Positions 724-62,767 of a stretch of DNA of 64,000 bases are shown here, piece after piece. Position 1 is the stretch's first letter. The number at the start of each line of letters is the position of its first letter. The notes below the pieces were generated by a model. It was given only the letters and a program-made list of their open reading frames with translations. It was not told the DNA's origin and made no database searches. Origin of the DNA: Bacilli bacterium (GTDB taxonomy: Bacteria; Bacillota_I; Bacilli_A; RF39; UBA660); the NCBI GenBank assembly GCA_017416535.1, contig JAFQCG010000005.1, forward strand, positions 141,708-205,707. The letters run 5' to 3'. Made by a program: the position numbers and the translations under genes.

Positions 724-764
724 AAGACACCAAAGAAGAATAAATAGTTATTCTTCCCTTTCTT

Positions 765-2591: not shown

Positions 2592-2605
2592 ATACTACCT
2601 CCATT

Positions 2606-46834: not shown

Positions 46835-46862
46835 ATAAAAAAGTGTAAGACTATCTTACACT
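46835..46862 (-). terminator. terminator (AAAGTGTAAGA..TCTTACACTTT plus U-run)
   Basis: Hairpin overlapping the stop of the 46851..48065 gene, followed by a T-run on minus. Confidence 0.55.
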
Positions 46863-48065
46863 TTTATAAGCTTCATGTAATTGGGCGAACTTTAATTGTT
46901 CTTGTTTTCTAATTTCTGATTTTAATTTTTGTTCATTTTTCTTTTTTTGTTTTTCTTTAAGAAGCGTTGCTAAAACTTTATAATCTTCTAGAGTGAACAT
47001 ATTATCTAAGTTTTTCATAATTTCTACTGTCTTATCTAACTTAGGCTCTTCTTTTACGTCAAGTACTTCAACCTTTGATTCTTGTAGTTTTTGATTTTCT
47101 TTTTGTAGTCTTGCTTTTTCTTGTTGTAATTTTATTTTTTCTTGTTGTAGTTCAAGTTGTTCAAATTGTAGTGACACTTGTTCTTCTTCTAGTTTATAGT
47201 TTTCTTCTTCTTTTAATTTTATTGTATCTTCATGGATTCTTATTTGCTCTTCAGCTAATTTTAATTTTGAATTAGCTTCAGCAAGTTGTTTTTCTAGGTT
47301 TTCTTTTTCTATTTTGTGTTCATCTACTAATTCGGCAATAATTACGGGTTCTTCATTTACTTTTACTGCTTCTTGTTTTTTAGGTTGTGCTTTTACAAAT
47401 AATGGCACATCTACTTCTTTTATTCCTTCTGGTAAGGCTCTTACTTTTTTTACAATAACTTTTCTTTTTACTGGTACTACATCTTTCTTTTGATATTTTC
47501 TTATTATCTTGTAGAATATTAAGAATATTATCCATACAATAAATATAGCACTTGAGAATTCAATTATTGCTTGAGCATCTTTATTTCCATAAACTGATGT
47601 TTGTGAAAATATATCTAAATTATTTTTTGATATAACATTTAAAACTAATGCTAATAAGTAGTGAATTATACCATATACTGTAATGTTTATATTTCTTACT
47701 AATTTTGCTGTTTTAAAATTAAATACACTTATTAGTAAAATAATATTTGTAATTATTATTGCCACCAAGTAGACTGCCACATTAGGGAAATATAAGACTA
47801 TAAAGAAGTTATTCATCATATAGTCAAACATTTTTCCTAGTGATTCGTGATAGAACACTAATATTGCTATTAGGATTAAACTATATGTTAATCCATATAT
47901 TAGTTTACCTCTCTTAACATTTTTTTTGTTTGTTTTGAGAGCAACTACAGCTAATAAGATTATGAATGCAATAACGGCTATGAATAGTTTTGATGACATT
48001 GATACATCAAATACTATTTTTAATTTTTCTAGTATCGTTGTTTGTGTCATAACCTTCACCCCCAT
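46851..48065 (-). CDS. membrane protein with long C-terminal coiled-coil (E/K/Q-rich heptads), downstream of sortase
   Basis: 5-6 N-terminal TM helices then about 180 aa of coiled-coil sequence (LEKQLAEANSKLKLAEEQIRIHEDTIKLKEEE...). Confidence 0.45.
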   Translation of the reverse strand: MGVKVMTQTTILEKLKIVFDVSMSSKLFIAVIAFIILLAVVALKTNKKNVKRGKLIYGLTYSLILIAILVFYHESLGKMFDYMMNNFFIVLYFPNVAVYLVAIIITNIILLISVFNFKTAKLVRNINITVYGIIHYLLALVLNVISKNNLDIFSQTSVYGNKDAQAIIEFSSAIFIVWIIFLIFYKIIRKYQKKDVVPVKRKVIVKKVRALPEGIKEVDVPLFVKAQPKKQEAVKVNEEPVIIAELVDEHKIEKENLEKQLAEANSKLKLAEEQIRIHEDTIKLKEEENYKLEEEQVSLQFEQLELQQEKIKLQQEKARLQKENQKLQESKVEVLDVKEEPKLDKTVEIMKNLDNMFTLEDYKVLATLLKEKQKKKNEQKLKSEIRKQEQLKFAQLHEAYKSVR

Positions 48066-48076
48066 GAAGTTCTTTT

Positions 48077-48751
48077 TTATTCTTCTACAACACTTTGTAA
48101 TTCTGCAACATAAATTGTTTGTGTTGCTTTATCAAAATTTGTACATGTAATTAATGTTAATGTTGTTTTATCGTAGTTTCTATATATTGCTATTGTTCCT
48201 GTTTTTTGTTGCTTATAGATGTTTACGATTTTATATGTGTATTTTTTTCCTTTATATGATATTTCTGCTTTGTCTCCTGTTGATAATTTGTATAAATCAT
48301 TAAAGAATGCTTTCCATCCTGATCCAGAGTGTGCGGCAATTATTAAGTTTCCTTTCTCCTTATCAGGATAAGAAGAACCTTCTATTACCGTAATATTTTG
48401 TTCAATATTGTTTAACTTGGATCTCATATCTAAGAAACCTTTTTTTAGGTTAATCTTTGGTATTGTTAAATAACCAATATATTCATTAGTTACTTCCCCT
48501 AGTTCTTCTTCCTTTTGTTCTTCTTGTAATTCTCCGTCGTGTTCTAATATTTCAACTTCTTCAGCTTGATAGAAGACGTTAGCCATATAATCATAGGCCA
48601 TTACTCTTTTAGATTGAACATAATTATATGAAAGAAAGAATCCTCCTATTAAGATTATAACTGAACCGATGACAGCTATCGTACTAGAAGAGATTCTTTT
48701 TTCTTGTTTTCTATTATCTTGCTTTACCATTCTTGTATACGTAACTAACAC
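48077..48751 (-). CDS. sortase (class B/D-like transpeptidase)
   Basis: N-terminal TM anchor, catalytic IAAHSG (His) and TLTLITC (Cys). Overlaps the adhesin stop. An internal ATG at 48730 is an alternative start. Confidence 0.8.
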   Translation of the reverse strand: MLVTYTRMVKQDNRKQEKRISSSTIAVIGSVIILIGGFFLSYNYVQSKRVMAYDYMANVFYQAEEVEILEHDGELQEEQKEEELGEVTNEYIGYLTIPKINLKKGFLDMRSKLNNIEQNITVIEGSSYPDKEKGNLIIAAHSGSGWKAFFNDLYKLSTGDKAEISYKGKKYTYKIVNIYKQQKTGTIAIYRNYDKTTLTLITCTNFDKATQTIYVAELQSVVEE

Positions 48752-50231
48752 CTGCAGCGATTATTACAATACCTAATAATGTGATAATTAATGAAGAAGA
48801 TGCAGTGTCTGGCACTGGTACTTCTGGATGGTTTTCAAATGTTATTTGATGTGATAATTCAGTATCTGAGATTATAAATTTCTTAACTTCAGAACTGTGT
48901 TTATATCCATTTGGTGCACTTACTTCTTCAACTGTATATGTACCATTTGCTAAATCTGTTAATACATATGGTTCAGTTGTTGATGTAAATTGTGCAACTG
49001 TATTTCCTGCAGAATCTTTTACTAATAGAACTGCTCCTGCTAAAGCATTTCCTGTTGAAGCATCAACTTTTACGATATTAACAACTGTTTTTCTTGGTGT
49101 ATTTTCAACTTTGATTTTAATATCTCTATTTGTATTTGTAATTGTAAATTTAATTGGAGTCTTATTTAATAAGTATCCAACTGGTGCTTTAGTTTCTTCA
49201 ACTGTATAAGTACCATTTGGTAAATTTCTAATTACGTGATAGTTTGTTGTTGATGTCCAAGAAGTTTTTATATTTCCGTTAGCATCTTTTACAACTAATG
49301 TTGCTCCTGCTAATGAATTTCCTGTTGTTGCATCAACTTTAACTATACTTACTTTTGATGATTCAATTTCTAATGATAGTTTTGCAGTTACATTTACTGT
49401 TTCTTTTTCTGGAATTGAAACTGTAACTGGTTGCATACTATCATCTGTTGGTTTATATTCATATGCTTTGTATACTACTCCTGTAGCACTTGCAGATATA
49501 TTAATTTTTAATGATGTTCCACTTACTGAACTTACTGGAACTTTTACTTTAAATTTTTCTTTAACACCAAAAGATGTTTTTGCATTACCATTTGCATCTA
49601 CTAATTGAATGTTGTTTGCACCAGTTGCTGATACTTTATAAGATGAGATATTGCTATATGATTTAGCATAAATATCTTCTGAAACGTAGTAGTTTCCTTC
49701 TAATTTCATATCAAAATTTGATGCTGTTAATGCTAATGATGTTTTTGCATATCCTGCTTTTTTAGCAGCTTCTGCTTTAGCAACTAAATCTTTGATTGTT
49801 GATCTTAAGTTGTAATCGTCTGATCCTGTTACTTTGAATTTTTGACTTAAGTTTGACCCACCTGCTGTATTATCTAAATACCACCAAAGAGCTGTTTGAG
49901 TGATATAGTAGTCTTTCATTTTATCTCCTGTGAAAGACTTATTTGGATAACCGTTAGTTATGATATACGCAACTCCGGCATCTTTTTCACCTACTAAGTT
50001 AGCAGTGATATTTTTTGCTGTCTTTTTATTCATATTAAGACAGTATAATAATGTACCATCAGTTTTTGTTTTAGTAGTAAATTTTACTCCTGCAACATAT
50101 CCAGGTACGATTTCTGCTCCACCTAATTTAATAGATGAGGCTACTGCACTAGTATTAAGAGATGTAAATAAAATTGCAGCACTAATTAATACTAATAAAA
50201 GTTTTTTTGTTAATTGTGTTAACTTTTTCAT
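48714..50231 (-). CDS. thioester-domain (TED) surface adhesin with two CnaB/SpaA-type Ig domains and a C-terminal sorting signal (VPDTA, TM, KNGKAR)
   Basis: Signal peptide. TED motifs LLYCLN (Cys) and ITQTALWWY (TQxA[IV]W). Two tandem about 85-aa repeats (VKVDATTGN.LAGA.L.VKD..GN). C-terminus PVPDTASSS plus hydrophobic stretch plus KNGKAR. Confidence 0.8.
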   Translation of the reverse strand: MKKLTQLTKKLLLVLISAAILFTSLNTSAVASSIKLGGAEIVPGYVAGVKFTTKTKTDGTLLYCLNMNKKTAKNITANLVGEKDAGVAYIITNGYPNKSFTGDKMKDYYITQTALWWYLDNTAGGSNLSQKFKVTGSDDYNLRSTIKDLVAKAEAAKKAGYAKTSLALTASNFDMKLEGNYYVSEDIYAKSYSNISSYKVSATGANNIQLVDANGNAKTSFGVKEKFKVKVPVSSVSGTSLKINISASATGVVYKAYEYKPTDDSMQPVTVSIPEKETVNVTAKLSLEIESSKVSIVKVDATTGNSLAGATLVVKDANGNIKTSWTSTTNYHVIRNLPNGTYTVEETKAPVGYLLNKTPIKFTITNTNRDIKIKVENTPRKTVVNIVKVDASTGNALAGAVLLVKDSAGNTVAQFTSTTEPYVLTDLANGTYTVEEVSAPNGYKHSSEVKKFIISDTELSHQITFENHPEVPVPDTASSSLIITLLGIVIIAAGVSYVYKNGKAR

Positions 50232-50972: not shown

Positions 50973-51559
50973 ATGAAAAAGAAATTTATATTAGTTAGTT
51001 TATGTGTAATATTATTATTTGTTATTGCATGTAGTGTGTTATTTGACTTTAGAAAAGAAGATAATAACCTAAAGAAAATTACTGTTGCGGAGGTTGCTCA
51101 TACTATTTTTTATGCGCCTCAATATGTAGCACTTGAACTTGGTTATTTTGAAGATGAAGGTCTTGATGTAGAACTTATGCTTGCAAATGGAGCTGATAAA
51201 GTTACTGCGGCTGTGTTATCTGGAGATGCAGAGATTGGATTTTCTGGAAGCGAGGCAACAATTTATGTGTACAATGGTGGAGAAAAAGACTACTTACAAA
51301 CTTTTGCTCAATTAACACAAAAAGATGGTTCTTTTCTAGTATCTAGAAAAAAGATTGATAATTTTACATTGGATGATTTAAAAGGAAAAAGAATTATTGC
51401 TGGTAGAGCTTATGGTATGCCAGAAATGACATTAAAATATGCTATTAAGAAAAATGGTATTGATCCTGATAAAGAACTTGAATTAGACACATCTGTTGCT
51501 TTTGCAGCAATGAGTGGTACATTCATTGCTGGTGAGGGAGATTTTGTTTCATTATTTGA
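50973..51559 (+). pseudogene. 5' part of an NMT1/ThiY-type ABC substrate-binding lipoprotein gene (sulfonate/nitrate/thiamine-precursor class), interrupted by a mobile element
   Basis: Lipobox LLFVIAC; ...AGEGDFVSLFE, then the sequence enters the element. The ORF-track product from 51560..51677 (HNVTKRMYFCTFLF...) is junk read-through. Confidence 0.7.
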
Positions 51560-51560
51560 A

Positions 51561-51577
51561 CATAATGTAACAAAAAG
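51561..51577. repeat. left terminal inverted repeat of the element
   Basis: CATAATGTAACAAAAAG; reverse complement present at 57547-57563. Confidence 0.7.
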
Positions 51578-51601
51578 AATGTACTTTTGTACATTCTTAT
51601 T
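51578..51601 (-). terminator. perfect palindrome AAGAATGTAC tttt GTACATTCTT just inside the left element end, probable terminator for the first cargo gene
   Basis: 10-bp perfect stem with 4-nt loop; on the minus strand it is followed by TTTTTGTT, which is the TIR. Confidence 0.5.
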
Positions 51602-52394
51602 TCATTACTTTTTTTATTACTTTTTCTATATGTCCTTTTTTACTTGCTTCAAAGTGATTTGTATTTTCTTCTTCTAACATATAATTTATTCCTAACTGTT
51701 CAAGTAAATCTGGTTCAAATACTACTATTCCATCACTTCTACTTGATGTTACTTTTTTAATCATATCATCAAGCTCTAATACTAAGGAATTATTTTCTTT
51801 TTCTCTATCAATGTAACTTCCTACTACTAGCAATTTATTTAAATCTACTTTAGTTAAGTCTATGCCTTTAAAATTATCTTGTTCAAATCCGTATTTTGGA
51901 TTAACTATTAGTTTTAGCATTTCTACGATTAGTTTTTGTCTTTGTGTAAAAAATCTTTTAAAATCTTCTAGATAATATGGATTTGCTAGAGGAGTTCCGA
52001 CAATCGATGGATGTATAGCTATTACTTTATCTACTCTTTCTGAGGTGGTTGCTAGTGATGCAATTATTCCACCGAAACTTTCTGTTACAAATATAACATC
52101 ATTTAGATTAGATTCTTCTAATGATTTTATTAAATTATCGGTAAAGTTCTCTGCATTATATTGTTCTTTATTTTTAGAAGATAGTGGATAATCATAGAAC
52201 CAAGAGCCTGTAAACATATTATGTCCAGGATCAAATGTATAACCGGTTTGCTCTAAAGCATGAAATCTATGTTCCATTTGCCCGCCAATATAAATTATTG
52301 GTTGTTCATTTTTATTTAATTTCTTTTCATCAATATATAAACTACCAAGTTCATTAGGTTTATATCTTTTCTTTTCATTACGATAGTTAATCAT
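51597..52394 (-). CDS. hypothetical protein, possibly alpha/beta-hydrolase fold (VTESFGG nucleophile-elbow-like motif)
   Basis: 265-aa ORF inside the element. The [ST]xSxG-like motif is tentative. An 8-nt overlap with the upstream ORF suggests coupling. Confidence 0.4.
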   Translation of the reverse strand: MINYRNEKKRYKPNELGSLYIDEKKLNKNEQPIIYIGGQMEHRFHALEQTGYTFDPGHNMFTGSWFYDYPLSSKNKEQYNAENFTDNLIKSLEESNLNDVIFVTESFGGIIASLATTSERVDKVIAIHPSIVGTPLANPYYLEDFKRFFTQRQKLIVEMLKLIVNPKYGFEQDNFKGIDLTKVDLNKLLVVGSYIDREKENNSLVLELDDMIKKVTSSRSDGIVVFEPDLLEQLGINYMLEEENTNHFEASKKGHIEKVIKKVMK

Positions 52395-53256
52395 TCTTTT
52401 CTCCAGAATTATTGTTTCTTTTTTTAGAAAACATAAGCGGACTTATACCTCTGAATGTTTCCATCTCTTTCTTTAAATATTCAGCTTCTTGCCATGCTTC
52501 TGGAAAATATTCTTTTGTTTTTTCAAATTCATAACGATATTCTGCGAAAGATGGACTTTCTACGTCTATTAGTGGTTCTAATAGTAAAATCATATCCGCT
52601 AAAGCATTTGATTCACTTATCATTTCTTTATATTTTTCTTTTTGTTCTTCTGTTCCTTCGCTTATTTTTATAGAATGTTTTGTTTCCATATTATATGTTT
52701 CTTTAAACCAATCACTTCTTAATATTCTTTTTGTTAATACATCTACTAAATAATCTACACCATTAATATTTACTTCAACAAATGGTCTAGTTTCTTCTAG
52801 TCTTACACCTTCTCTTGTAGGTGAATCATATATTGCATCTATAAATGTTGCGTCATCAAATATTGCTGATACAGCATAGTTAGGGTCATATACACAACTA
52901 CGTCCTACTTTTACTGGTGGTCTTGTTAATCTTAACGAGATTGGAACACTTCCAGTAATATAGATTGATTTTTTTCTAAATTCTTCTTTCATCCATAATG
53001 GTATTCCACATATTCTTGGATGTTCTTCATAACAATAATGATTTGTGTCATCAACTATTTCTAATTTATCTAAATCAAGTGATTGTTTTGTTGGATCAAT
53101 TAATTTCTTTGAAACTAATGCTTCCATTATTGTTGCTTCTATTGATTCTCTTTCTAGTGGCGGCATATCAGGATGAGCCTCAATATAATCTAGAATATGC
53201 CAGCATCTATAAAAGACATCATTTGTTAATAATTCATAATCTACTAAACTTGCCAT
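52387..53256 (-). CDS. hypothetical protein (cargo of the mobile element)
   Basis: 289 aa with its own RBS AAGGGGGAA; no recognisable motif. Confidence 0.4.
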   Translation of the reverse strand: MASLVDYELLTNDVFYRCWHILDYIEAHPDMPPLERESIEATIMEALVSKKLIDPTKQSLDLDKLEIVDDTNHYCYEEHPRICGIPLWMKEEFRKKSIYITGSVPISLRLTRPPVKVGRSCVYDPNYAVSAIFDDATFIDAIYDSPTREGVRLEETRPFVEVNINGVDYLVDVLTKRILRSDWFKETYNMETKHSIKISEGTEEQKEKYKEMISESNALADMILLLEPLIDVESPSFAEYRYEFEKTKEYFPEAWQEAEYLKKEMETFRGISPLMFSKKRNNNSGEKND

Positions 53257-53277
53257 AGTAATTCCCCCTTAAGTGCC

Positions 53278-54210
53278 TCATATTATAACAAATCTATTGT
53301 TTTTAGTCAATTTGTTAAGTCTTTTATTAGCTTTATTCCAAAGATATTCACTTATTATTGGTGGGAATTTTTCATAATCTTTATACATTATCCACTTATT
53401 TTTAGGAATCAACTTTACTTTTTTAGTCATATAGTCAATTACTTCACATTTTCCTCCAACATAATATCCTTTATATTTTGGATTTCTTATTAATCTTGAA
53501 AGTGCTGTTGCACTAAAGTGTTTATTATTAGTAGTTTTTATATTTTTGGATTTTAAAATCCTGGCTATTTCGTGAAGAGATTTATTTTTTGTTGCATATA
53601 ACTTATATATTTCATTTATTATATTTGCTTGTTGATTATTTATTATATACTTATCATTTATTTTTTTATAACCATATATTTTTTGATTTCCTAAGATAGT
53701 TCCTTTTTTTATTGATTCTTTCATTCCAAACTTTACTCGTTCTGATAGCTTTCTTATTTCATCTTGAGCAAGGGAAGACATTATTGTTAATCTTAATTCA
53801 CTATCAGGTAATATTGTATTTATATTATCATTTATAAATAATACTCCTACTCCATTTTTTAAAAGTTCTCTTGTGTATTTTATACTATCTAGTGTATTTC
53901 TTGAAAAACGGGATATTTCTTTAGTAATAATTAAATCAAATTTATTTTCTTTAGCATCATTAATCATTTTCATAAAACTTGTTCTTTTTATATCTGATGT
54001 TCCTGTTATACCATTATCTATATATCCTTTACTATAAATCCAATTTTTATTTTTATTAATTATTTCTTCAAAATAACTTTGTTGATTTTTAAGAGAAGTC
54101 TTTTGTTCTTCGCTTGTTGTTGAGACTCGTGAATAATATGTTACTCTTAGAGGTATATTTGTTAGGGGAATTCCTATACTTAGTTCTTGTCTAACTTTAT
54201 ATAAGTCCAT
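53278..54210 (-). CDS. serine recombinase (resolvase catalytic domain plus recombinase domain, lacks zinc-ribbon/coiled-coil)
   Basis: YYSRVSTTSEEQKTSLKNQ (catalytic Ser region), DLIITKEISRFSRN, C-terminal recombinase-domain-like YGYKK...IARILKSKNIKT...NPKYKGYYV; 310 aa. Confidence 0.8.
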   Translation of the reverse strand: MDLYKVRQELSIGIPLTNIPLRVTYYSRVSTTSEEQKTSLKNQQSYFEEIINKNKNWIYSKGYIDNGITGTSDIKRTSFMKMINDAKENKFDLIITKEISRFSRNTLDSIKYTRELLKNGVGVLFINDNINTILPDSELRLTIMSSLAQDEIRKLSERVKFGMKESIKKGTILGNQKIYGYKKINDKYIINNQQANIINEIYKLYATKNKSLHEIARILKSKNIKTTNNKHFSATALSRLIRNPKYKGYYVGGKCEVIDYMTKKVKLIPKNKWIMYKDYEKFPPIISEYLWNKANKRLNKLTKNNRFVII

Positions 54211-54280
54211 TTTATATACTCTTTCTATTCATAAAAAAATCACATCCTAATTTAGGATATGATTTATTTTGTTATTTATT

Positions 54281-55624
54281 CTAATCTTGTTTTTGTTCTA
54301 AATCTACTGACTTGATAGTTAATAAATATAAGTCATCATTATGTTTAATATAGAAACAGCATTTTGTATGTTTTGTTACTACATAGTACATAATTGGTAA
54401 TTTTAAATTATCTCTTACGTCTAGTAATTCTTCGAACTTTGATATTTTAATCACATTTGTATTACTTGTATCTGGACCTGTTCCATTTTCAACAATTAAT
54501 CTATCATATTCATTTAGAATTTTTTCTACGTATTTATCATAGATTGATTTTTTTCCTCTTAATAAGATTAGTAATCTTAAAGTTTTAATTCCAAATACTA
54601 ACATAGCAATTAGAGATATTATTGATAAAATGCCAAATATAATATTATCTGTTTTTGTATCGATGTTTTGAATTACATAATTAGAATTATTAATATCTTG
54701 ATAGTTTAATTCAATATTAATTGCCTTTTCAGATAATGGTATTTTAACAAACATAGTACTATTTTCAACTGCATTAGAGGCATTTTCAATATTAGTATTT
54801 TTATTTACTCTTAAATATACAGTTAAGTAACTTGTTGTATCTAATCCAAATTGTTGTTTAAAACTGTTAGCTAAATTATTATAGTATGCATAATCAATTT
54901 TAACTTTTTCATTTAAATTATAATTTGTACCAGATTTTATACTTTTTCTTTGATTATTTAATAAAACGTATTCTTTTTCAAAGTAATTATTTTTTGATGA
55001 GCCATCATCTATTGTTAGTTTAGCTACAATACTATAATTGAAATCTACATTTGAAGGTTTTTCAATATTATAATTATATCTAAAATTAATTTCTATATTA
55101 TCAATTAAGTTAGCTATGTATACTTTGTTTTTTCCTAAATAATCTGATTCATAGAAATTATTTTCTTTTAAGTATACTTTGTAGTCAAGATTACTCATTT
55201 CATTATAGTTAATCATTTGATTAGTTGTTTTACTAAAAGCTCCTTGAAGAAAGATGATTGTGATTATGAATAATGCTATGAAAGTTAGAGAGTTTGCTAA
55301 TAATCTTGTTTTATAATCTACGTAATGTTCACTTTTATTAGTTACATTATTTAAAAAACTTTTCTTTTCAGTTTTTTCTTCTATTGCTTCGCTTTCATCA
55401 TATACAAAAATATCATTTTCATATGTTTCTTCATATTGAGGTAACTCTTCATTTTCAGTTTTTATTACTCTTTCTTCATGAGTAATTTCTTCTACTTGTT
55501 CTTCTGTTTGTTCTTCATTATTTAATTCTTTGTTTTCATCAGCAATTTCTTCACCAATTATTTCTTCATCAAATAATTCTTCTATATTTTCACTCATAGT
55601 CAACCTCCTATTTTTACATTTCAT
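54281..55624 (-). CDS. two-TM membrane protein with acidic N-terminus and N/Y-rich extracytoplasmic domain; possibly a DUF5305-like SipW/TasA-operon partner
   Basis: 447 aa. Located immediately downstream of the sipW-like gene with an 11-nt overlap. Confidence 0.45.
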   Translation of the reverse strand: MKCKNRRLTMSENIEELFDEEIIGEEIADENKELNNEEQTEEQVEEITHEERVIKTENEELPQYEETYENDIFVYDESEAIEEKTEKKSFLNNVTNKSEHYVDYKTRLLANSLTFIALFIITIIFLQGAFSKTTNQMINYNEMSNLDYKVYLKENNFYESDYLGKNKVYIANLIDNIEINFRYNYNIEKPSNVDFNYSIVAKLTIDDGSSKNNYFEKEYVLLNNQRKSIKSGTNYNLNEKVKIDYAYYNNLANSFKQQFGLDTTSYLTVYLRVNKNTNIENASNAVENSTMFVKIPLSEKAINIELNYQDINNSNYVIQNIDTKTDNIIFGILSIISLIAMLVFGIKTLRLLILLRGKKSIYDKYVEKILNEYDRLIVENGTGPDTSNTNVIKISKFEELLDVRDNLKLPIMYYVVTKHTKCCFYIKHNDDLYLLTIKSVDLEQKQD

Positions 55625-56741
55625 TTAACCATACTGTAGGTAAACCAAGATATGGTATAACAAATTCTACTGTTCCAATAATTGTATCTTGTTCTACTAC
55701 GTAGTTATCTTCTTTTGCATTAGCATCTCCTTTTGTATATACATAATACTCACCTTTTTCTTCTATTATGTTTACAATTCTATGAACTACTAATACTCCA
55801 TGATATGTATAAGCAATTACTTGCCCTTTTTCTAATTTATCATATTGCTTATCTATTTTTTCAATTACTACTATATCACCTTTTGAAATTGCTTTTTCCA
55901 TACTACCACTTGCAATTGCGACTGCATAGTAATGGAAATATCCAGATGTAAAATATACTAATATTGTTACTAATACTGTAGGTATAATTAAAGACCAGGC
56001 AGATGTTTTATTATAATTTCTATCTACTTCTTGATCTGCTGTTAGATTGAAAAATCCACTTAATTTATATCCTAATAATATTGGTAATAAAAACCTTATA
56101 ATTGATGCAATATACTCATTTGGATTTGGTACTAAAGGTAATAAGTATTGATATAAATTCATTACTAGTAAATATAATATGTTTGGTTTATATCCAACTT
56201 TAAATGTTAAATATGAACATACTATATTTGTGCTAATTGCAGGTAATAATGTTAATGCAAAGAAAATAAATGTATCATACTTTGATGAAAACCCATTATA
56301 AAATATCGGATTTGTTACATCTAAAAAGATAAATAATATACATGATAATATCATTAGTATTTTATTACCTTCTGATTTCATAATAACTTGATATCTTAAA
56401 AATTCTTTTAATATTATTGTTATTATGATTGGTATTATAAATGTTTTTATACCATTTAAAGTATAGTAATTATCAGTTCTTGCAAAACCTATTATTAATC
56501 CTGATAAATAGTATATTAAGAAAAAGATTAACAGAAAAATTATTACATCAAATATAATATCTTTTGTAAAACGATGTCGATCTTTTTCAATTCCAAAAAA
56601 CAACTTAAATATAATTATTGTTAATATTAAAAATACTATTGTTGTGTAATTTCCTAATATGTTATGAATAAAACTATTTAGGATTAGTATGAAAAACATG
56701 ATAAGTTGAAATATTAATAATTTTTTGTACCCTCTTTTCAT
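55614..56741 (-). CDS. SipW-type (ER/archaeal-type, Ser/His) signal peptidase I fused to an N-terminal about 250-aa polytopic membrane domain
   Basis: C-terminal IASGSMEKAISKGDIVVIEK...VLVVHRIV...YTKGDANAKED matches the SipW SGSMEP / HRI / KGDAN motifs. Preceded by about 8 TM helices. Confidence 0.75.
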   Translation of the reverse strand: MKRGYKKLLIFQLIMFFILILNSFIHNILGNYTTIVFLILTIIIFKLFFGIEKDRHRFTKDIIFDVIIFLLIFFLIYYLSGLIIGFARTDNYYTLNGIKTFIIPIIITIILKEFLRYQVIMKSEGNKILMILSCILFIFLDVTNPIFYNGFSSKYDTFIFFALTLLPAISTNIVCSYLTFKVGYKPNILYLLVMNLYQYLLPLVPNPNEYIASIIRFLLPILLGYKLSGFFNLTADQEVDRNYNKTSAWSLIIPTVLVTILVYFTSGYFHYYAVAIASGSMEKAISKGDIVVIEKIDKQYDKLEKGQVIAYTYHGVLVVHRIVNIIEEKGEYYVYTKGDANAKEDNYVVEQDTIIGTVEFVIPYLGLPTVWLNEM

Positions 56742-56798
56742 CCTTTCCCTCCTATATTCTATATACTAGGAAAGACACAATTTTTTTGTGTCTACATT

Positions 56799-57455
56799 TT
56801 AATCTACTGTGTCGTATTTAAGTGTAATGTCACCAAATGAAACATTGAAGTTTCCGTCTGCTCTATTTCCACCAGCAGCATATGATATTTTAACTACAAC
56901 TTTTTCTTTTGTATTTTTTTCTAATTTATGATTGCTGATAGTTGCTTGCGATCCAGATACTGCTGCATCATCTCCAACCTTAACTGTTACTGATATTGAT
57001 TCACAAGCTGCACTAACTAATGAGGCAGTTGTTGTAGCAGGATTTGTTGCTGCACAATATCTAGGTGCTGATTGTCCCTCTACATTTGCAAAGACAATTG
57101 AATTTAAATATGCATCATATTCTCCTTCATTGTGTACATAGAAAGTATATGATACTTCTTGTCCTGGCTGTGTAACGTTTGCTTTTAAACCAGAGATTCT
57201 TGCTCCTGATACTGTTGCTTGAGATGCATAGTATCCTAAATTGTCAGATTGTGCAGGTGTTCCAACAACACTTGTTGTGATTCCTGATTCACTTCCTGAT
57301 AAGTTAATTTTGAAATTTTCACTACTTGGACTTACATATGCACTTGATGATATTGTTAAAGTGTTTGAGAAAGCTGCAAATCCTAAAGTTAAACCAAATA
57401 CAGCAACTACTAGTGCTACTACTGCAATAATTTTTGAACTTCTATTCTTTTCCAT
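56799..57455 (-). CDS. TasA/camelysin (peptidase M73) family secreted fibre protein with SipW-cognate-type signal peptide
   Basis: Signal VVALVVAVFGLTLGFAAFSN (compare TasA GGGTWAAFND). NVTQPGQEVSYTFYVHNEGEY resembles the TasA beta-sandwich core. Confidence 0.75.
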   Translation of the reverse strand: MEKNRSSKIIAVVALVVAVFGLTLGFAAFSNTLTISSSAYVSPSSENFKINLSGSESGITTSVVGTPAQSDNLGYYASQATVSGARISGLKANVTQPGQEVSYTFYVHNEGEYDAYLNSIVFANVEGQSAPRYCAATNPATTTASLVSAACESISVTVKVGDDAAVSGSQATISNHKLEKNTKEKVVVKISYAAGGNRADGNFNVSFGDITLKYDTVD

Positions 57456-57546
57456 ATTATTTTTTCCTTTCTCTATATGACTCCTATCATATTATATACA
57501 TTATAATTATAACAAAATAAATTGTTTATTAAAATACTAAATTTAA

Positions 57547-57563
57547 CTTTTTGTTACATTAAG
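57547..57563. repeat. right terminal inverted repeat of the element
   Basis: CTTTTTGTTACATTAAG; inverted copy of 51561-51577. Confidence 0.7.
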
Positions 57564-57564
57564 A

Positions 57565-57969
57565 GAACCTAATGCATTAGAAATTGAAAAAAATGGATAT
57601 GGCTATGTTGTTGCAAGTGTTGGCGAAATTGGAGGGATTGTTCCTTATACCTCTTATTCAGCAAGAAAAAGTTATATAGAAAATAATAATGATGAAATAA
57701 ATAAGTTTACTAGAGCAATCCAAAAAGGTTTGGATTATGTTCATAATCATAGTGATAAGGAAGTTGCAGAGGCAATACTTGATCAATTTCCAGATACATC
57801 TTTAAATGATTTAGAAAAAGTAGTAAAAAGATATCGAGAAATAGATGCTTGGCCTAAAACAACTAGTTTTAGTAAAAAATCCTTTGACCATTTACAAGAT
57901 ATAATGGTTGACTATGGAGCAATTAATGAAAAAGTTAATTATGATAAGTTGATTTACAATGAAAAATAA
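57565..57969 (+). pseudogene. 3' part of the interrupted NMT1-type ABC substrate-binding protein gene
   Basis: In-frame continuation (E)PNALEIEKNGYGYVVASVGEIGG...KLIYNEK*; overlaps the downstream ABC ATPase start by 11 nt. Confidence 0.7.
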
Positions 57970-58708
57970 ATTATTAAGTATAGTAAATTTAAAAAAAATA
58001 TATCACACAAAAAATGATGATGTATTGGCACTAGAGGATATAAGTTTTGATGTCTACGAAAACGAGTTTATTTCTATAGTTGGACCAAGTGGCTGTGGTA
58101 AATCCACAATTCTCTCAATACTTGCTAGATTAGAAGATAAAACTAGCGGAATTATTAGTTTTAAAGATAATTTAAGTGTTGGCTATATGTTACAAGATGA
58201 TTGTTTATTTGAATGGAAAAGTATTTTAGATAATTGTTTAGTTGGACTTGAAATTTCTAAAAAGAAAACCGATGAAGGTATTGAATATGTTCTGAATCTT
58301 TTAAGGACTTATGGGTTATATGAGTTTAAAGATATGTACCCTTCTAGTTTGTCAGGTGGAATGAGACAAAGAGTTGCATTAATTAGAACCCTTGCACTAA
58401 ATCCAGATGTTTTACTTTTAGATGAACCTATGTCAGCGCTTGATTCTCAATCGAGAATGGCTATTGGAGAAGACATTTATAATATAATTAAAAATGAAGG
58501 TAAAACAGCTATTATGGTAACTCATGATCTTAATGAGGCCATTAGTATGTCAGATAAAGTCATTGTTTTATCAAAAAGACCTGCTACTATAAAAAATATT
58601 TATGAAATAAATTTAGATAGTAAAACAACTCCTATAAAAAATCGTAGTGATGATAAATTTTCTTTTTACTATGATAATATTTGGAGGGATTTAGATGTTC
58701 ATATCTGA
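57959..58708 (+). CDS. ABC transporter ATP-binding protein (nitrate/sulfonate/bicarbonate, SsuB/TauB-like)
   Basis: GPSGCGKST, LSGGMRQRVALIRTL, LLLDEP. Confidence 0.85.
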   Translation: MKNKLLSIVNLKKIYHTKNDDVLALEDISFDVYENEFISIVGPSGCGKSTILSILARLEDKTSGIISFKDNLSVGYMLQDDCLFEWKSILDNCLVGLEISKKKTDEGIEYVLNLLRTYGLYEFKDMYPSSLSGGMRQRVALIRTLALNPDVLLLDEPMSALDSQSRMAIGEDIYNIIKNEGKTAIMVTHDLNEAISMSDKVIVLSKRPATIKNIYEINLDSKTTPIKNRSDDKFSFYYDNIWRDLDVHI

Positions 58709-59486
58709 AGAAAGAAAAAGATATTTATCTAAAATTAAAAGAGAAAAGCTCTTTGTAAGTTTTTTTAGATTTCTAATTATATTTATTTTTATAATTGGAT
58801 GGGAAGTTTTAGCAAGATTTGATATTATTAATACTTTTACATTTTCTTCTCCAAGTTTAATTATAAAAACATTTGCTGAGTTATTAAGAAATGGTTCTTT
58901 ATTTTCACATATTGGAATAACTTCATATGAAGTAATACTCTGCTTTCTTTTAGCAACTATTATAGGTTTATTATTTGCTGTTTTATTATGGTTTGTTCCA
59001 ATTTTTTCTAAAATTGTAGACCCCTATTTAACTGTATTAAACTCATTACCTAAGGTATCTCTAGGACCACTTATTATTATTTGGGTTGGAGCAAGTATTA
59101 ATTCTATAATACTTATGTCTCTTCTTATAAGTACATTTATTACAATAATTAATATTTATAATGGTTTTACTTCTACTAATAAAAACTATATTATTTTATT
59201 AAAAAGTTTTGGTGCGAATAAATGGCAAATATTTAAATATGTTGTCTTCCCAAGTAATATGCAGGTAATAATTAGTGCTTTAAAAATTAATGTTTCAATG
59301 AATTTAATTGGTGTTATTATGGGGGAATTATTGGTATCAAAAAAAGGTATTGGCTACTTAATCATGTATGGGTCACAAGTATTTAATATTAATTTGGTAA
59401 TTACTGGGGTTGTAATACTGGGAATAATTTCTTATTTAATGTATTTTATAATAGATACGTTTGAAAAGAACTTTAATAATAAATAA
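58695..59486 (+). CDS. ABC transporter permease (SsuC/TauC-like binding-protein-dependent inner-membrane component)
   Basis: 6-TM permease; overlaps the ATPase gene by 14 nt. Confidence 0.8.
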   Translation: MFISEERKRYLSKIKREKLFVSFFRFLIIFIFIIGWEVLARFDIINTFTFSSPSLIIKTFAELLRNGSLFSHIGITSYEVILCFLLATIIGLLFAVLLWFVPIFSKIVDPYLTVLNSLPKVSLGPLIIIWVGASINSIILMSLLISTFITIINIYNGFTSTNKNYIILLKSFGANKWQIFKYVVFPSNMQVIISALKINVSMNLIGVIMGELLVSKKGIGYLIMYGSQVFNINLVITGVVILGIISYLMYFIIDTFEKNFNNK

Positions 59487-60695: not shown

Positions 60696-61547
60696 TTATT
60701 TTTTTTGTTTTAGTTTTGGTGTATCTTTATCATCTAATCTTTTTTGAATACTACCTAAAAATTCTTGTTTAGTAAATGTTGTTTCAATTGTTCTTGTTCC
60801 ATTGATTAAGTATGCAGGTTGTTCTGGGTAACAATCTAATCCATCACCTACTGCTAAACTTTCAATCATTTGATAACTAATTGGATGACAGCATCCCATA
60901 AAAATTCTTGTTTGTGTAGAGATATCTATTAGTTGTTGTCTATCTTTTTCAATTAGTTCTTTACATGGTAGTGCTTTTTCAATTTCACTTGCAGAGATAT
61001 GCTGACTTTTTATAATGTATTGTAAATGTTTAATTAATTGTTCACCATACTCTCCTTTGTATTTATCTAAACTTTTTGCGTCTTCTTCAAATCTTACACC
61101 GTACTCATCAGCTTTTCTATCAACAAAATCTAGATAAGCTTTTAGTGCATCATCAGTTTGTCCGTGTAGTTCTAAATATTTTCCTAACATTTCGTCCAGA
61201 GCATATTCTTCAAATAAATCTTGAATGTATACGAACCATATTTCTTCTAATGCATCAGGTGCTAAAAATGGATATTTTTCTGAAATATCATATATTCCTT
61301 TAATAGTTTCTTTCTTAGTTCTTACATCGTATCTTCCACCGAAACTTTGAAATTGTCCAATGAATAGTTTATATTTTTCTACATCCATTTCTACATCTCC
61401 AAGAATTTCCATAATATATTTTGTTCTTGGAATTCTTCTACCAGTATCACATAACATATATTTGAAATCACTATCTTGATATTCCAAATATTCACTTAAT
61501 CGATGCTTTGGTAATTCTTCTTTTTTAAAATACTCTGTTTTTCGCAT
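60696..61547 (-). CDS. hypothetical protein (contains FMGCCHP motif) controlled by a T-box leader
   Basis: RBS AAGGAGGTGAAA 8 nt before ATG 61547 (MRKTEYF). The ORF-track GTG start at 61556 would overlap the RBS. Confidence 0.5.
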   Translation of the reverse strand: MRKTEYFKKEELPKHRLSEYLEYQDSDFKYMLCDTGRRIPRTKYIMEILGDVEMDVEKYKLFIGQFQSFGGRYDVRTKKETIKGIYDISEKYPFLAPDALEEIWFVYIQDLFEEYALDEMLGKYLELHGQTDDALKAYLDFVDRKADEYGVRFEEDAKSLDKYKGEYGEQLIKHLQYIIKSQHISASEIEKALPCKELIEKDRQQLIDISTQTRIFMGCCHPISYQMIESLAVGDGLDCYPEQPAYLINGTRTIETTFTKQEFLGSIQKRLDDKDTPKLKQKK

Positions 61548-61556
61548 TGGTTTCAC

Positions 61557-61860
61557 CTCCTTATTACTAAAATAAAAATACCCGTATCATCCTACAAATA
61601 AGGACGAATACGGGTATCCGCGGTGCCACCTTAATTTATTACTAAAAGTTATTTTAACTTTTTAAATCAGTAATCTCTTTTTCTGCTCTAACAAGCATAG
61701 CAATCTGATAACGGTTTGCTTTCCGAACTAGTCTACTAAGATTTCTCTTTTCGGTAGTTTGCTCCGAGGTGTTCTTTCTCAATAATCTTATAATCGGTTC
61801 ACACTATACCCGACTCACTGTTATAAGCATTAAAGGTACTTTTCCTCATCAATGCAAGCT
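61557..61860 (-). ncRNA. T-box riboswitch leader (probable Asn specifier AAC) with terminator/antiterminator
   Basis: T-box sequence AAGGTGGCACCGCGG (61618-61632 on minus). Terminator ATACCCGTAT..ATACGGGTAT plus U-run (61578-61616). Candidate specifier GAAAG-AAC-A (AAC is rc of 61771-61773). Confidence 0.7.
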
Positions 61861-61861
61861 A

Positions 61862-61942: not shown

Positions 61943-62767
61943 TTAATATCCTTCTTTTAATCCAGCACTATCATAGAATAAACTTCTTCCACCTTCTTGA
62001 TATTTTTTAGTATATCTAAAGTAGACAAAAATAGGTTTTCCGGTAGAAGTTATATACACGTAATTATCACATGTACAACGATCTTGATCAGCCATCTTTT
62101 TTGTTAACATAAATTCATCATCAAATTCATTAACAATATCTTTGTAGTTTATAAAGTTATCTTTTGTATACTCATTTACTTGCATCATTGATATAAATCC
62201 AACCTGATTTATTTGAGTATCATTTAAACTTTCTAAGAAATTAATTACTTCTTTTTTACTATCAATATAATCTTTTATTAGTAAACAATTTATTCGTAAG
62301 TCCGCTTTGCTCTTTAGTTGTTTTATTTTATCAAGTGTGATTGTTTTAGTTTGAAATACTTCATTATTTTTTTCATCTAAATAATGATGTCTACTTAATT
62401 GAATTGATTCAATTGGATACTTATTTAACATTGGAAGTGTTTTTTCTAATAATATACCATTGGTATTAAGTGTAATTCTGGGATCGTATTTTTTTAGTAG
62501 TTTTAATAAATCTTCCAAGTTTTCACAGTTTAGTAGAGTTTCTCCTCCGCTAATTGAAAATCTGCTTATTTTTTTATGTACTATGTCTATTATACTTTCC
62601 AACTCATTTAGATCTAATTTTCCAAAGTTCTTATTACATTCATTTGAACAAAATTTACATTTGGCATTACAAATATTTGTTACATTAATATAAAATGGAA
62701 ATTCATTACATGGTGAACATGCATATTCTTTTATATTATATTTTTTACCATTAACATCTAATTCCAC
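61943..62767 (-). CDS. radical SAM enzyme (small, 274 aa, no SPASM domain)
   Basis: CX3CX2C NICNAKCKFC, SISGGETLL (GGE motif). GTG start preceded by TAGGAAAT. Overlaps the 3' end of the repeat-peptide gene by 17 nt. Confidence 0.75.
   Translation of the reverse strand: MELDVNGKKYNIKEYACSPCNEFPFYINVTNICNAKCKFCSNECNKNFGKLDLNELESIIDIVHKKISRFSISGGETLLNCENLEDLLKLLKKYDPRITLNTNGILLEKTLPMLNKYPIESIQLSRHHYLDEKNNEVFQTKTITLDKIKQLKSKADLRINCLLIKDYIDSKKEVINFLESLNDTQINQVGFISMMQVNEYTKDNFINYKDIVNEFDDEFMLTKKMADQDRCTCDNYVYITSTGKPIFVYFRYTKKYQEGGRSLFYDSAGLKEGY

Follow-up and report, generated by a model that had tools for sequence, protein, structure and literature searches.

A 6-kb element with a short serine recombinase splits an ABC transporter binding-protein gene in gut Bacilli and may still excise

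The window analyzed here is a stretch of 64,000 nucleotides from an uncultured gut bacterium (Bacilli bacterium), in which a segment at 51560-57566 (6,007 bp including one GA, at most 2 nt off the coordinates of a preliminary description) splits the gene for the substrate-binding protein (SBP) of an ABC transporter. We favor, at a probability of roughly 0.55, the explanation that this segment is a vertically inherited gene-intervening element, of large serine recombinase (LSR) descent and still excising, a case of "regulated gene integrity". Two observations are those by which gene-intervening elements are recognized: removal of the segment restores the reading frame precisely, and the same integrase clade resides in the same retained gene in more than 15 lineages. 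Because both gene halves have been kept in working order, the element most likely excises and so switches the SBP gene back on.

The interrupted gene, its operon, and the two junctions comprise the following features.

50973..51559, plus strand: SBP gene 5′ part, codons 1-196, with the signal peptide and lobe 1 (Pfam NMT1, 3e-19)
51540..51557, no strand: B half-site of attB (host side of attL), reading outward from the crossover AAATAATGAAACAAAATC, which resembles the element arms
51558..51559, no strand: GA crossover dinucleotide of attL, the center of the dyad in rebuilt attB and attP
51560..51577, plus strand: P′ arm, the left terminal inverted repeat, ACATAATGTAACAAAAAG
57547..57564, no strand: P arm, the right terminal inverted repeat, reverse complement TCTTAATGTAACAAAAAG
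57565..57566, no strand: GA crossover dinucleotide of attR, placed by junction comparison with sister lineages
57567..57969, plus strand: SBP gene 3′ part, codons 197-329
57959..59486, plus strand: cognate ABC ATPase (249 aa) and permease (263 aa), both intact in the window

The open reading frame that starts at 50973 matches the NMT1/THI5-like family (Pfam PF09084) over profile positions 5-145 until codon E196 (51558-51560); beyond it the translation is junk, and the fragment from 57568 picks up the same profile at positions 177-214. The 3′ part, whose first 18 nt are the B′ half-site ACCTAATGCATTAGAAAT, lacks a start codon that could be used, a ribosome-binding site, and a signal peptide. 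When 6,007 bp were deleted in silico at the common GA (51558-59 and 57565-66), a single 329-aa SBP ORF resulted, so the preliminary description was right to place a ∼6-kb element precisely inside the gene, which it splits after codon 196. Uninterrupted SBP homologs of 328-332 aa exist at 72-80% identity, and the insertion codon lies within a motif of the SsuA/TauA-family ABC binding-protein gene, between GDFV(S/A)LFE and PNA. A comparison of the rebuilt empty site with related genomes, as had been proposed, returned an exact match: the predicted sequence, TTATTTGAACCTAATGC, is identical to one in two syntenic related genomes, L018 and L019, which is far beyond chance. The SBP gene is the first gene of the operon it shares with the ATPase and permease genes. 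In sister lineages, the ATPase gene of this operon is interrupted too.

Recombination at a central GA has produced the two junctions, which are its attL and attR. The inverted repeats proposed earlier stand, with 16 of 17 positions identical (51561-51577 and 57547-57563), whereas the accompanying "short flanking repeat" is really the crossover, GA. GAAC is common to both junctions in the window, and GA alone is common in L013, L015, L016, and L065. At 0-1 mismatch, the inverted-repeat 16-mer occurs at both element ends and at one further 1-mismatch site, 37206. Rebuilt attP (38 bp) and attB (18 bp) are each dyad-symmetric around GA; TAATG is found at positions 4-8 from the center in all four half-sites, which have the inner motif TAATGYAACA in common. 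Across 11 arms from six lineages, there is no variation at arm positions 4-8 and 10-13, and position 9 covaries between the two arms (T/T or C/C). The junction sequences thus agree with the initial view of a serine-recombinase element with a GA crossover and imperfect inverted-repeat ends. The conserved ends have shrunk to ∼13 bp, and arm symmetry extends over 9-18 nt with short recombinases versus 20-22 nt with long ones (six versus three elements). Since the zinc-domain motif of a Listeria integrase lies at half-site positions 16-24 (PMC3783163), this shorter symmetry fits the loss of that motif.

The element encodes its own recombinase.

53278..54210, minus strand: 310-aa serine recombinase (Pfam PF00239 and PF07508 over residues 25-299)

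The catalytic domain (PF00239, 1.3e-29) is closest in the PDB to 3G13 (1.8e-41), a Clostridium difficile conjugative-transposon recombinase, and the recombinase domain (PF07508, 1.4e-20, residues 193-299) follows the αE helix. Compared with full-length integrases, a model of the protein corresponds to their first ∼310 residues, and the alignment takes in the recombinase domains of 4KIS, 4BQQ, and the SPbeta integrase. The catalytic residues R28, S30, Q36, R101, and R104 are invariant among 23 short forms. The protein ends 11 residues past the recombinase domain and has no PF13408 match for a zinc ribbon or coiled-coil; a tblastn search of the window and sister loci in any frame found no zinc-domain remnant. 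The nearest relatives outside the short forms, at 70% identity or less, are 460-546 aa long, contain the zinc ribbon, and are inserted at the same site. The short recombinases form one monophyletic, diversified clade (302-317 aa, dN/dS 0.05-0.19), and the short form has arisen independently at least twice more, in L020 and L024. The recombinase is therefore as unusually short as had been remarked, and the idea of an undescribed small family is better replaced: judged by domain content and phylogeny, the protein is a truncated derivative nested in the 460-546-aa LSR clade, with its zinc ribbon and coiled-coil removed, and not a canonical LSR member.

Against excision by the short form, site binding and synapsis in the LSRs studied to date depend on the zinc-ribbon/coiled-coil module, and we know of no natural enzyme with an architecture truncated like this one that has been demonstrated to work. 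An integrase deprived of the coiled-coil alone kept weak activity and carried out some attL × attR deletion without a directionality factor (PMC5499577). We suggest, tentatively, that LSRs stripped of the zinc ribbon and coiled-coil may be active, each of at least three independent truncations having fallen at one domain boundary, and may use ∼13-bp half-sites for factor-independent excision, and perhaps re-insertion, of vertically inherited elements. If so, they would give non-sporulating gut Bacilli a heritable means of turning an ABC transporter operon on and off, and the operon of the sister lineages would hold a second such element, in the ATPase gene.

As first described, the recombinase and five cargo genes lie on one strand: the element carries six ORFs, all on the minus strand. 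Its cargo genes and small sites are listed below.

51575..51598, minus strand: terminator-like hairpin after the 265-aa gene, abutting the left arm; also in L013 and L067
51597..52394, minus strand: 265-aa cargo protein, weakly alpha/beta-hydrolase/esterase-like (esterase E=2e-4, far below the cut-off)
52387..53256, minus strand: 289-aa cargo protein with a weak transglutaminase/papain-like fold and no function label
53282..53310, minus strand: promoter-like site TTGACT-17-TGnTATAAT, called solely from its consensus match (11 of 12)
54237..54265, minus strand: terminator-like hairpin between the DUF5305 and recombinase genes, with a 13-pair stem and a T run
54281..55624, minus strand: 447-aa membrane protein with DUF5305 (Pfam PF17231, 3.3e-12)
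55614..56741, minus strand: 375-aa protein with a ∼250-aa polytopic membrane domain fused to a SipW/archaeal-type signal peptidase I (TIGR02228, 1.9e-22)
56799..57455, minus strand: 218-aa secreted protein whose N-terminus resembles, by alignment, a SipW-dependent signal peptide (...GLTLGFAAFSNTLTISS)

From these assignments, the cargo is a predicted SipW-type signal peptidase/DUF5305/secreted-protein operon. The 375-aa peptidase scores above the TIGR02228 cut-off, matches the SipW model at 1.5e-16, and has a dN/dS of 0.08-0.12. The 218-aa protein, which may be TasA/camelysin-like by its context alone, has no Pfam or PDB sequence match and none to TasA or camelysin. Cargo varies between lineages; the 265-aa protein is missing from L015 and L016, and the 289-aa protein, which has chromosomal homologs elsewhere, is the only conserved neighbor of the recombinase. 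The promoter-like site precedes the 289-aa gene and lies inside the 3′ end of the recombinase gene. Searches of the six ORFs against Pfam, NCBIfam, and PHROG revealed no mobilization, conjugation, or resistance genes, and no replication, phage structural, or lysis genes; no candidate for a directionality factor or regulator was identified. A prophage or phage satellite was rejected, as the integrase is the sole PHROG match and has no close relatives in IMG/VR (the nearest recombinase in phage records is 52% identical). A staphylococcal-type cassette chromosome was also rejected, since the NCBIfam models CcrC and CcrB score 100 and 96 bits against cut-offs of 900 and the target is the SBP gene, not the 3′ end of rlmH.

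All 18 contigs of the host species carry the insert, and at least 15 diverged "Bacilli bacterium" lineages have an insert at the same SBP codon 196, among them L013, L015, L016, L065/66, and L067 as well as L020-L026, L028, and L029. Every recombinase relative at 54% identity or more with a readable target is at this codon; L027 and L030, for which no flanking SBP could be read, were left out of the target reading. Element proteins share 67-84% identity across lineages in which the flanking proteins share 86-96%, and element dS values are 0.5-1.4, near saturation. Recombinase and host distances correlate (Mantel r=0.75, p=1e-4), and the base composition of the element is indistinguishable from that of its flanks. 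Element and host have diverged together, and we infer that the element is old and vertically inherited at one site.

All rebuilt SBPs in the occupied lineages are intact. Overall, they give a dN/dS of 0.10-0.15, no different from the 0.116 of the empty-versus-empty comparison. Taken separately between occupied lineages, the N and C halves have a dN/dS of 0.08-0.25 (0.10-0.25 for the C half), and the SBP halves, ATPase, and permease together span 0.08-0.25 with zero stop codons over a dS of ∼1; the neutral probability of a stop-free SBP is ∼0.001 per lineage. These substitution patterns indicate purifying selection on both SBP halves and the short recombinase, as does arm conservation for ∼13 bp of each element end. 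Since the SBP is under purifying selection, the transporter gene is not simply "inactivated", and the idea of a recent inactivating insertion is not supported for an element that has diverged with its hosts.

An intact SBP would also be expected if an active, strictly site-specific mobile element re-entered a conserved attB and was lost again, such that the gene was uninterrupted over most of its evolution. In keeping with this, conservation of the attB sequence extends to 57% protein identity, the element is patchily distributed (the empty L018 and L019 are as near to the window as the occupied L020 and L021), cargo differs by lineage, and strain L003 has recombined homologously across the 5′ half of the SBP gene. 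We nonetheless consider such an element rather unlikely, given the complete lack of transfer, replication, or phage genes, an occupied clade in which every contig and every species is occupied and no close intact allele is found, an element at least as diverged as its hosts with correlated distance matrices, and a recombinase that without its zinc ribbon and coiled-coil is a poor candidate for attP × attB integration. It is improbable that the element is a fossil, in which an ancestral insertion killed the transporter and the truncated, immobile recombinase kept its ORF for another role or by chance. The recombinase does lack domains thought essential, the ATPase gene is also interrupted in sister lineages, and the excision product was not found: no intact SBP at >86% identity to any occupied-clade member is present among 5.8 billion proteins, and no attP junction in metagenome or viral collections. 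A fossil would not, however, account for the constraint on the stop-free SBP halves, ATPase, and permease, for a strongly constrained recombinase with its catalytic residues intact, or for non-coding arms that are conserved and covarying; moreover, the C-terminal half of the SBP cannot be made or exported alone.

The preliminary description had likened the element to Tn5397/Tn4451. With Tn4451 (TnpX) and Tn5397 (TndX) of clostridia it does share a serine recombinase, a GA crossover, imperfect inverted-repeat ends, and a likeness between the target half-sites and its own ends; the closeness of its catalytic domain to 3G13 also speaks for this comparison. Those transposons, however, are mobilizable or conjugative, carry resistance genes, have many targets, and encode full-length recombinases. 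Because attP and attB are dyad-symmetric, one codon is occupied in at least 15 lineages, recombinase and host distances correlate, and phage and transfer genes are absent, the element classifies as a site-specific integrative element of LSR lineage and not as a transposon of that type. That a mobilizable or conjugative transposon landed in the SBP gene by chance is very improbable for an element with a single target site in every lineage examined, vertical inheritance, a shortened recombinase, and neither a mobilization/conjugation module nor resistance cargo. Hardly credible is an SBP that is natively two polypeptides with 6 kb of ordinary chromosome between them. The two-part arrangement is indeed present in all strains of the species and in sister species, as this would predict, but the outgroups L018 and L019 have in the same gene neighborhood one uninterrupted SBP gene with exactly the predicted junction, the 3′ part lacks the signals for separate translation and export, and the interval is flanked by recombination sites and encodes a recombinase.

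For the favored gene-intervening element, we envisage that in some cells or conditions the 310-aa recombinase would pair attL with attR and cut both at GA. Strand rotation and rejoining would release a 6-kb circle and leave an intact 329-aa SBP gene before the ATPase and permease genes. As only the catalytic and recombinase domains are kept, the enzyme would read the inner TAATGYAACA of all four half-sites. A coiled-coil lock makes ordinary LSRs need a directionality factor; with this lock missing, the short form could act without one, as a simple deletion (possibly also re-insertion) enzyme. In the integrated state, the cargo operon (SipW-type peptidase, DUF5305, secreted protein) would be expressed, and in the excised state, the transporter would be restored. 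We know of no terminal differentiation in these bacteria, which counts against excision, as selection would have to feed back to element-carrying cells.

Several serine-recombinase-excised gene-intervening elements are established under the collective name "regulated gene integrity": skin in sigK (SpoIVCA), SPbeta in spsM (SprA/SprB), gin in gerE (GirC/GirX), and the fdxN element (XisF) (PMC7192596, PMC5595907, PMC4191935). Like these, the element described here splits a coding sequence that precise recombination restores, encodes its own serine recombinase, and shows vertical inheritance at a fixed site and a patchy distribution; as gin demonstrates, such an element need not be a prophage. 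Unlike these, its recombinase has no zinc ribbon or coiled-coil, a directionality factor is not evident, and excision is a prediction from sequence. The target is an ABC binding-protein gene rather than a sporulation or heterocyst gene, and the hosts are uncultured gut Bacilli with, to our knowledge, no terminal differentiation. With canonical LSRs (phiC31, Bxb1, A118/LI, SPbeta SprA) it shares the catalytic domain, αE helix, and recombinase domain, a 2-bp crossover that centers dyad-symmetric att sites, and an attB inside a conserved gene. In contrast to their 20-25 bp, the conserved half-site is ∼13 bp, and the protein, which stops shortly past the recombinase domain, lacks the structural parts on which attP/attB discrimination and directionality are based. 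A possible gene switch by reversible excision with the element kept also recalls active lysogeny (phi10403S in Listeria comK and Sa3int phages in S. aureus hlb), although those elements are whole prophages whose integrases are of the tyrosine or full-length serine type, and phage genes are absent here. Finally, as in the heterocyst nif/fdx/hup genes, several elements can occupy one functional unit, the ATPase gene of this operon also being split in sister lineages.

That the 6,007-bp insert at 51560-57566 is a site-specific element derived from the large serine recombinases (LSRs), which crosses over at a GA dinucleotide inside a natively single ABC substrate-binding protein (SBP) gene, is very well supported. 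The ORF from 50973 encodes an NMT1/THI5-type SBP that matches Pfam profile positions 5-145 and whose reading frame turns to nonsense past codon E196 (51558-51560). Profile positions 177-214 are matched by a stretch from 57568, the end of this 3' part overlaps the start of the ABC ATPase gene, and the permease gene comes next. Joining the 5' and 3' parts in silico gives a single 329-aa ORF, and full-length SBP homologues of 328-332 aa with 72-80% identity are abundant. The preliminary description of the split gene, the inverted repeats, and the ORFs was correct to within 2 nt. In L018 and L019 (GCA_965350605.1), loci of two related species with the same synteny, the SBP gene is uninterrupted and the site, ...TTATTTGAACCTAATGC..., is the exact in silico excision product, which bears out the earlier proposal that excision restores the ORF. 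Because these syntenic loci are uninterrupted and equal to the excision product, the SBP gene is natively single; the alternative of two native genes, also raised in the preliminary description, was examined, and both outgroup loci show one gene. The SBP falls below every NCBIfam cut-off, with the SsuA family as its top match, and the Rfam search of the window returned no riboswitch that would name the transporter substrate, the sole match being an unrelated T-box.

The interval contains six ORFs, and six of six lie on the minus strand:
218 aa, minus strand: secreted protein (from alignment)
375 aa, 55614-56741, minus strand: signal peptidase I of the SipW/archaeal type (TIGR02228, above cut-off) with a fused polytopic membrane domain
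447 aa, minus strand: DUF5305 membrane protein
310 aa, 53278-54210, minus strand: serine recombinase with Resolvase and Recombinase domains
289 aa, minus strand: protein without a family match
265 aa, minus strand: protein without a family match

The SipW-type peptidase fusion is the best-conserved cargo protein (81-84% identity, dN/dS ~0.09). Its N-terminal membrane part of ~250 aa has many predicted transmembrane helices, and related elements in L022 and L024 carry the same fusion. No TasA/camelysin sequence match was found for the 218-aa protein, and PADLOC returned no defence-system matches among the cargo. Three putative regulatory sites were located by consensus match only:
54237-54265: terminator-like hairpin between the secreted-protein/SipW/DUF5305 operon and the recombinase gene
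53282-53310: strong promoter-like site ahead of the 289-aa gene
51575-51598: hairpin that abuts the left arm

The hairpins and the promoter-like site suggest that recombinase expression may be low and dependent on read-through.

An exact-protein look-up placed the insert at the same position in 18 of the 18 contigs that carry this species' ATPase. Further occupied loci encode recombinases that are 75% (L013), 75% (L015), 72% (L016), 73-75% (L065/L066), and 87% (L067) identical to that of the window. These five groups of loci share a neighbourhood (sortase, TED/SpaA adhesin, metallophosphatase, and SBP) and an element core, which consists of the secreted protein, the SipW-like peptidase, the DUF5305 protein, the short recombinase, and the 289-aa gene. 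The cargo on the attL side differs between lineages: the 265-aa gene is present or absent, and a WXG100/C39-peptidase cluster in L015 and L065 brings the element to 9.2-10.1 kb. Scanning species-representative genomes and then running tblastn showed that this codon is also occupied in MAGs of 'Bacilli bacterium' and Candidatus Coprovivens (L020-L026, L028, and L029), where a related recombinase (58-69% identity) directly adjoins the 3' gene half and GA is present at every readable junction.

The recombinase itself is unusually built. Pfam domains span residues 25-299 of the 310 aa, no zinc ribbon was matched by Pfam, and no remnant of one occurs in any frame of the window or the sister loci. 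Three integrases can be superposed on its AlphaFold model (pLDDT 86.7): the 535-aa SPbeta enzyme over its first ~310 residues, phiC31 as the 'N-terminal plus recombinase domain' fragment, and the CTD of the Listeria enzyme over its recombinase-domain part. Homologues at 72-99% identity are all 302-317 aa long, and those at ≤70% identity are mostly 460-546 aa with a zinc ribbon. The short forms of the window clade are monophyletic and well diversified in a neighbour-joining tree, and separate short forms appear among the long ones (L020/P0146/P0149, L024, P0163, and P0171, P-numbers being recombinase homologues); all short forms end no more than a few residues from one shared linker (...WNKANKRL...). 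Given a dN/dS of 0.05-0.19 and the invariance of R28, S30, Q36, R101, and R104 in 23 of 23 short sequences, the short recombinase is not a pseudogene. Because the LSR-defining zinc ribbon/coiled-coil was looked for and is missing, we file the enzyme as a truncated derivative of the LSR lineage and not as a canonical member.

The inverted repeats at 51561-51577 and 57547-57563 match at 16 of 17 positions. Read from the sequence, with slashes marking junctions, attL is CATTATTTGA/ACATAATGTAACAAAAAG and attR is CTTTTTGTTACATTAAGAGA/ACCTAATG; the in silico junctions are ...GATTTTGTTTCATTATTTGA/ACCTAATGCATTAGAAATTG... for attB and ...CTTTTTGTTACATTAAGAGA/ACATAATGTAACAAAAAG... for attP. With the arms exchanged, attP is the 38-bp CTTTTTGTTACATTAAGA-GA-ACATAATGTAACAAAAAG and attB is CATTATTT-GA-ACCTAATG. 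Both rebuilt sites are dyad-symmetric about an exact GA centre, TAATG occupies positions 4-8 from the centre in all four half-sites, and the B arm (AAATAATGAAACAAAATC) is similar to the P arms across 13-15 positions. GAAC is common to both window junctions. Since the junctions of sister lineages have only GA in common (TTCGA/TGTT and GAGA/GCCT in L013), the crossover is pinned to a 2-bp overlap that is not palindromic, in keeping with a serine recombinase.

The 11 arms compared, which come from six lineages, are invariant at positions 4-8 (TAATG) and 10-13 (AACA) and mostly A at positions 14-17, with no conservation further out. At position 9, both arms of the window element have T, and four other elements have C in both. 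P/P' symmetry extends over 9-18 nt in short-recombinase elements and 20-22 nt in long-recombinase elements, a comparison drawn from a small sample (n = 6 versus n = 3). The structure of the Listeria integrase on attP has the zinc domain reading positions 16-24, with the inner part read by the recombinase domain (PMC3783163). The trend in our small sample runs in the direction that a loss of all but inner-motif reading would predict. Because this motif is present in all four half-sites, an enzyme that reads it alone would not tell attP, attB, attL, and attR apart. The short enzyme would also be without the coiled-coil lock that blocks attL x attR recombination in normal integrases; a Listeria enzyme without its coiled-coil carries out some L x R deletion in the absence of a directionality factor, albeit inefficiently (PMC5499577). 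The 13-nt inner arm motif (TTAATGTAACAAA) recurs a third time at 62673-62688 (minus strand) within a radical-SAM gene, 5 kb from attR. This copy is kept in all strains, and the chance expectation is ~0.04 such matches. TA and not GA would be at its centre, and it has no partner half-site; thus, the copy is probably fortuitous.

The 289-aa neighbour was considered as a replacement DNA-binding module or directionality factor, and both roles were rejected. Its model is confident (pLDDT 90.9) with only a weak papain/transglutaminase-like match, its gene is missing from the other short-recombinase elements (L020 and L024), and a homologue with 53% identity is encoded by an ordinary chromosomal gene that sits between ldh and ftsW. 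In other Bacilli (L068-L070) the family is present on the chromosome as one copy, flanked by the lactate dehydrogenase gene and ftsW/mraY. The 289-aa gene seems to be a host gene captured by the element. At 53257-53280 (minus strand), the recombinase stop and the 289-aa ATG share a frame, 7 codons apart. A fusion by stop-codon read-through or frameshift was rejected since the frame is not shared consistently: by their coordinates, the two genes have a common frame in L015, L067, and the window and different frames in L013, L016, and L065, so that the shared frame is probably a coincidence.

When the window is compared with L013/L015/L016, identity is 86-96% for flanking proteins and only 67-84% for element proteins. 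The dS of element genes (0.5-1.4) is at least that of flanking genes (0.3-1.5), values that are near saturation. Element GC content does not differ from that of the flanks, and across 13 occupied lineages recombinase identity follows host identity, taken from the SBP 3' half and the ATPase 5' half (Mantel r = 0.75, p = 1e-4). The element ORFs include no phage, replication, conjugation, or mobilisation genes, and the phage and viral collections hold no close relatives of the element. Because of this co-divergence, the flank-like GC content, and the lack of phage or transfer genes and close viral relatives, the pattern is one of long residence and essentially vertical inheritance, with loss from time to time, and is not that of a recently spreading transposon. 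A phage origin was also rejected, as PHROGs match the integrase alone. The closest recombinase in the phage collection (52% identity) is that of MT837325.1 (L057), an unannotated 7.1-kb 'Bacteriophage sp.' record from human faeces with no other similarity to the element and no terminal repeat.

The rebuilt SBP is a full-length ORF in every case, and a composition-matched neutral simulation puts the chance of remaining stop-free at ~0.001 per lineage.

Pairwise dN/dS (NG86) in the interrupted operon
Whole SBP, occupied versus occupied: 0.10-0.15 (dS 0.8-1.1)
SBP, empty versus empty (L018-L019): 0.116
SBP N-terminal half, occupied versus occupied: 0.08-0.13
SBP C-terminal half, occupied versus occupied: 0.10-0.25
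ATPase and permease: 0.14-0.20

The interrupted SBP gene is still under selection. Its C-terminal half lacks a start codon, a ribosome-binding site, and a signal peptide and can matter only within the rejoined gene. It follows that one of two histories must be true: either the SBP is periodically reconstituted in cells that feed the gene pool or benefit kin, or it has been uninterrupted for much of its history. We favour, at a probability of roughly 0.55, an element that is vertically inherited and still excises. Excision products were sought directly. Exact ATPase and recombinase look-ups returned occupied loci only, no intact SBP is >86% identical to any occupied lineage, the attP-junction pattern had 0 matches in JGI metagenomes and IMG/VR, and the attB/attR pattern matched distant empty sites only. 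Alongside these null results stand the selection on both the SBP gene and the recombinase, and a fossil element seems improbable. A mobile but strictly site-specific element with turnover at the population level is somewhat less doubtful, although still unlikely; the empty sites of L018 and L019 speak for it and the co-divergence of recombinase and host against it. By their coordinates, Logan contig ends near attR reflect gaps in coverage and not graph branches, and so give no sign of excision.

The preliminary description had drawn an analogy to Tn4451/Tn5397-type transposons, which did not hold: the element failed the tests for this class, as it did those for SCC-type cassettes and prophages. 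Intervening elements that restore genes are known mainly from sporulation and heterocyst genes and a few prophage switches. The nearest known counterparts are gene-intervening elements, also called 'regulated gene integrity' systems, exemplified by skin, SPbeta, gin, and the fdxN element (PMC7192596, PMC5595907, PMC4191935). Unlike in these systems, a transporter gene is interrupted here and the hosts belong to uncultured gut Bacilli; co-divergence is deep, the recombinase is truncated, and no directionality factor is evident. A vertically inherited, still excising element would add a nutrient-transporter operon to the targets of gene-intervening elements and, to their hosts, uncultured low-GC gut Bacilli in which element and host have long diverged together. 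The enzyme would represent a natural minimal LSR of 310 aa, without zinc ribbon or coiled-coil, with ~13-bp half-sites, and kept by selection. If active, it bears on LSR site recognition and directionality and is a possible compact, factor-independent deletion tool. As the att sites, the protein, and a full-length same-site relative (476 aa, from L021) are all defined, the idea is directly testable.

Two further features flank the interrupted operon:
46851-50231, minus strand: pilus-like adhesin cluster just upstream, kept in all related loci
61597-61861, minus strand: T-box leader (106 bits) upstream of a 283-aa gene at 60696-61547

The adhesin cluster is made up of a sortase (217 aa), a 404-aa protein, and a C-terminally anchored TED (thioester)/SpaA-domain protein of 505 aa. 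Within the SBP operon, the ABC ATPase gene is split in sister and more distant lineages (L013, L016, L065/L066, L022, L023, L025, and L060), right after the signature motif LSGGMRQRV/A (codon ~142). The second element responsible is unrelated and encodes a serine recombinase of 494-502 aa (25-27% identity). Past the ATPase break, L065 has GtrA/glycosyltransferase/PMT_2 genes and pieces of transposase genes, CAAAGAGTTGCT is repeated at both ATPase junctions in L023, and several assemblies end exactly at the split point; the window ATPase is uninterrupted (corresponding site 58367-58378). In L033, L034, and L035 (Erysipelotrichaceae-like and other MAGs), the SBP is split elsewhere, around residue 93-99, by elements with 362-377-aa recombinases (48-50% identity), and in L035 the ATPase is also split, near residue 195. 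Several serine-recombinase elements thus seem to target this operon recurrently. In L003 (ERZ1767641 NODE_1220, positions 1-3100), a strain of the window's species, the first ~90 SBP codons and everything upstream are replaced by an NTP-transferase and a 326-aa DUF5305 gene, and the remainder, element included, has 98-100% identity; either recombination with a breakpoint within the 5' gene half or a chimeric assembly accounts for this. A DUF5305 gene lies upstream of the SBP in the distant empty loci L058 and L064 as well.
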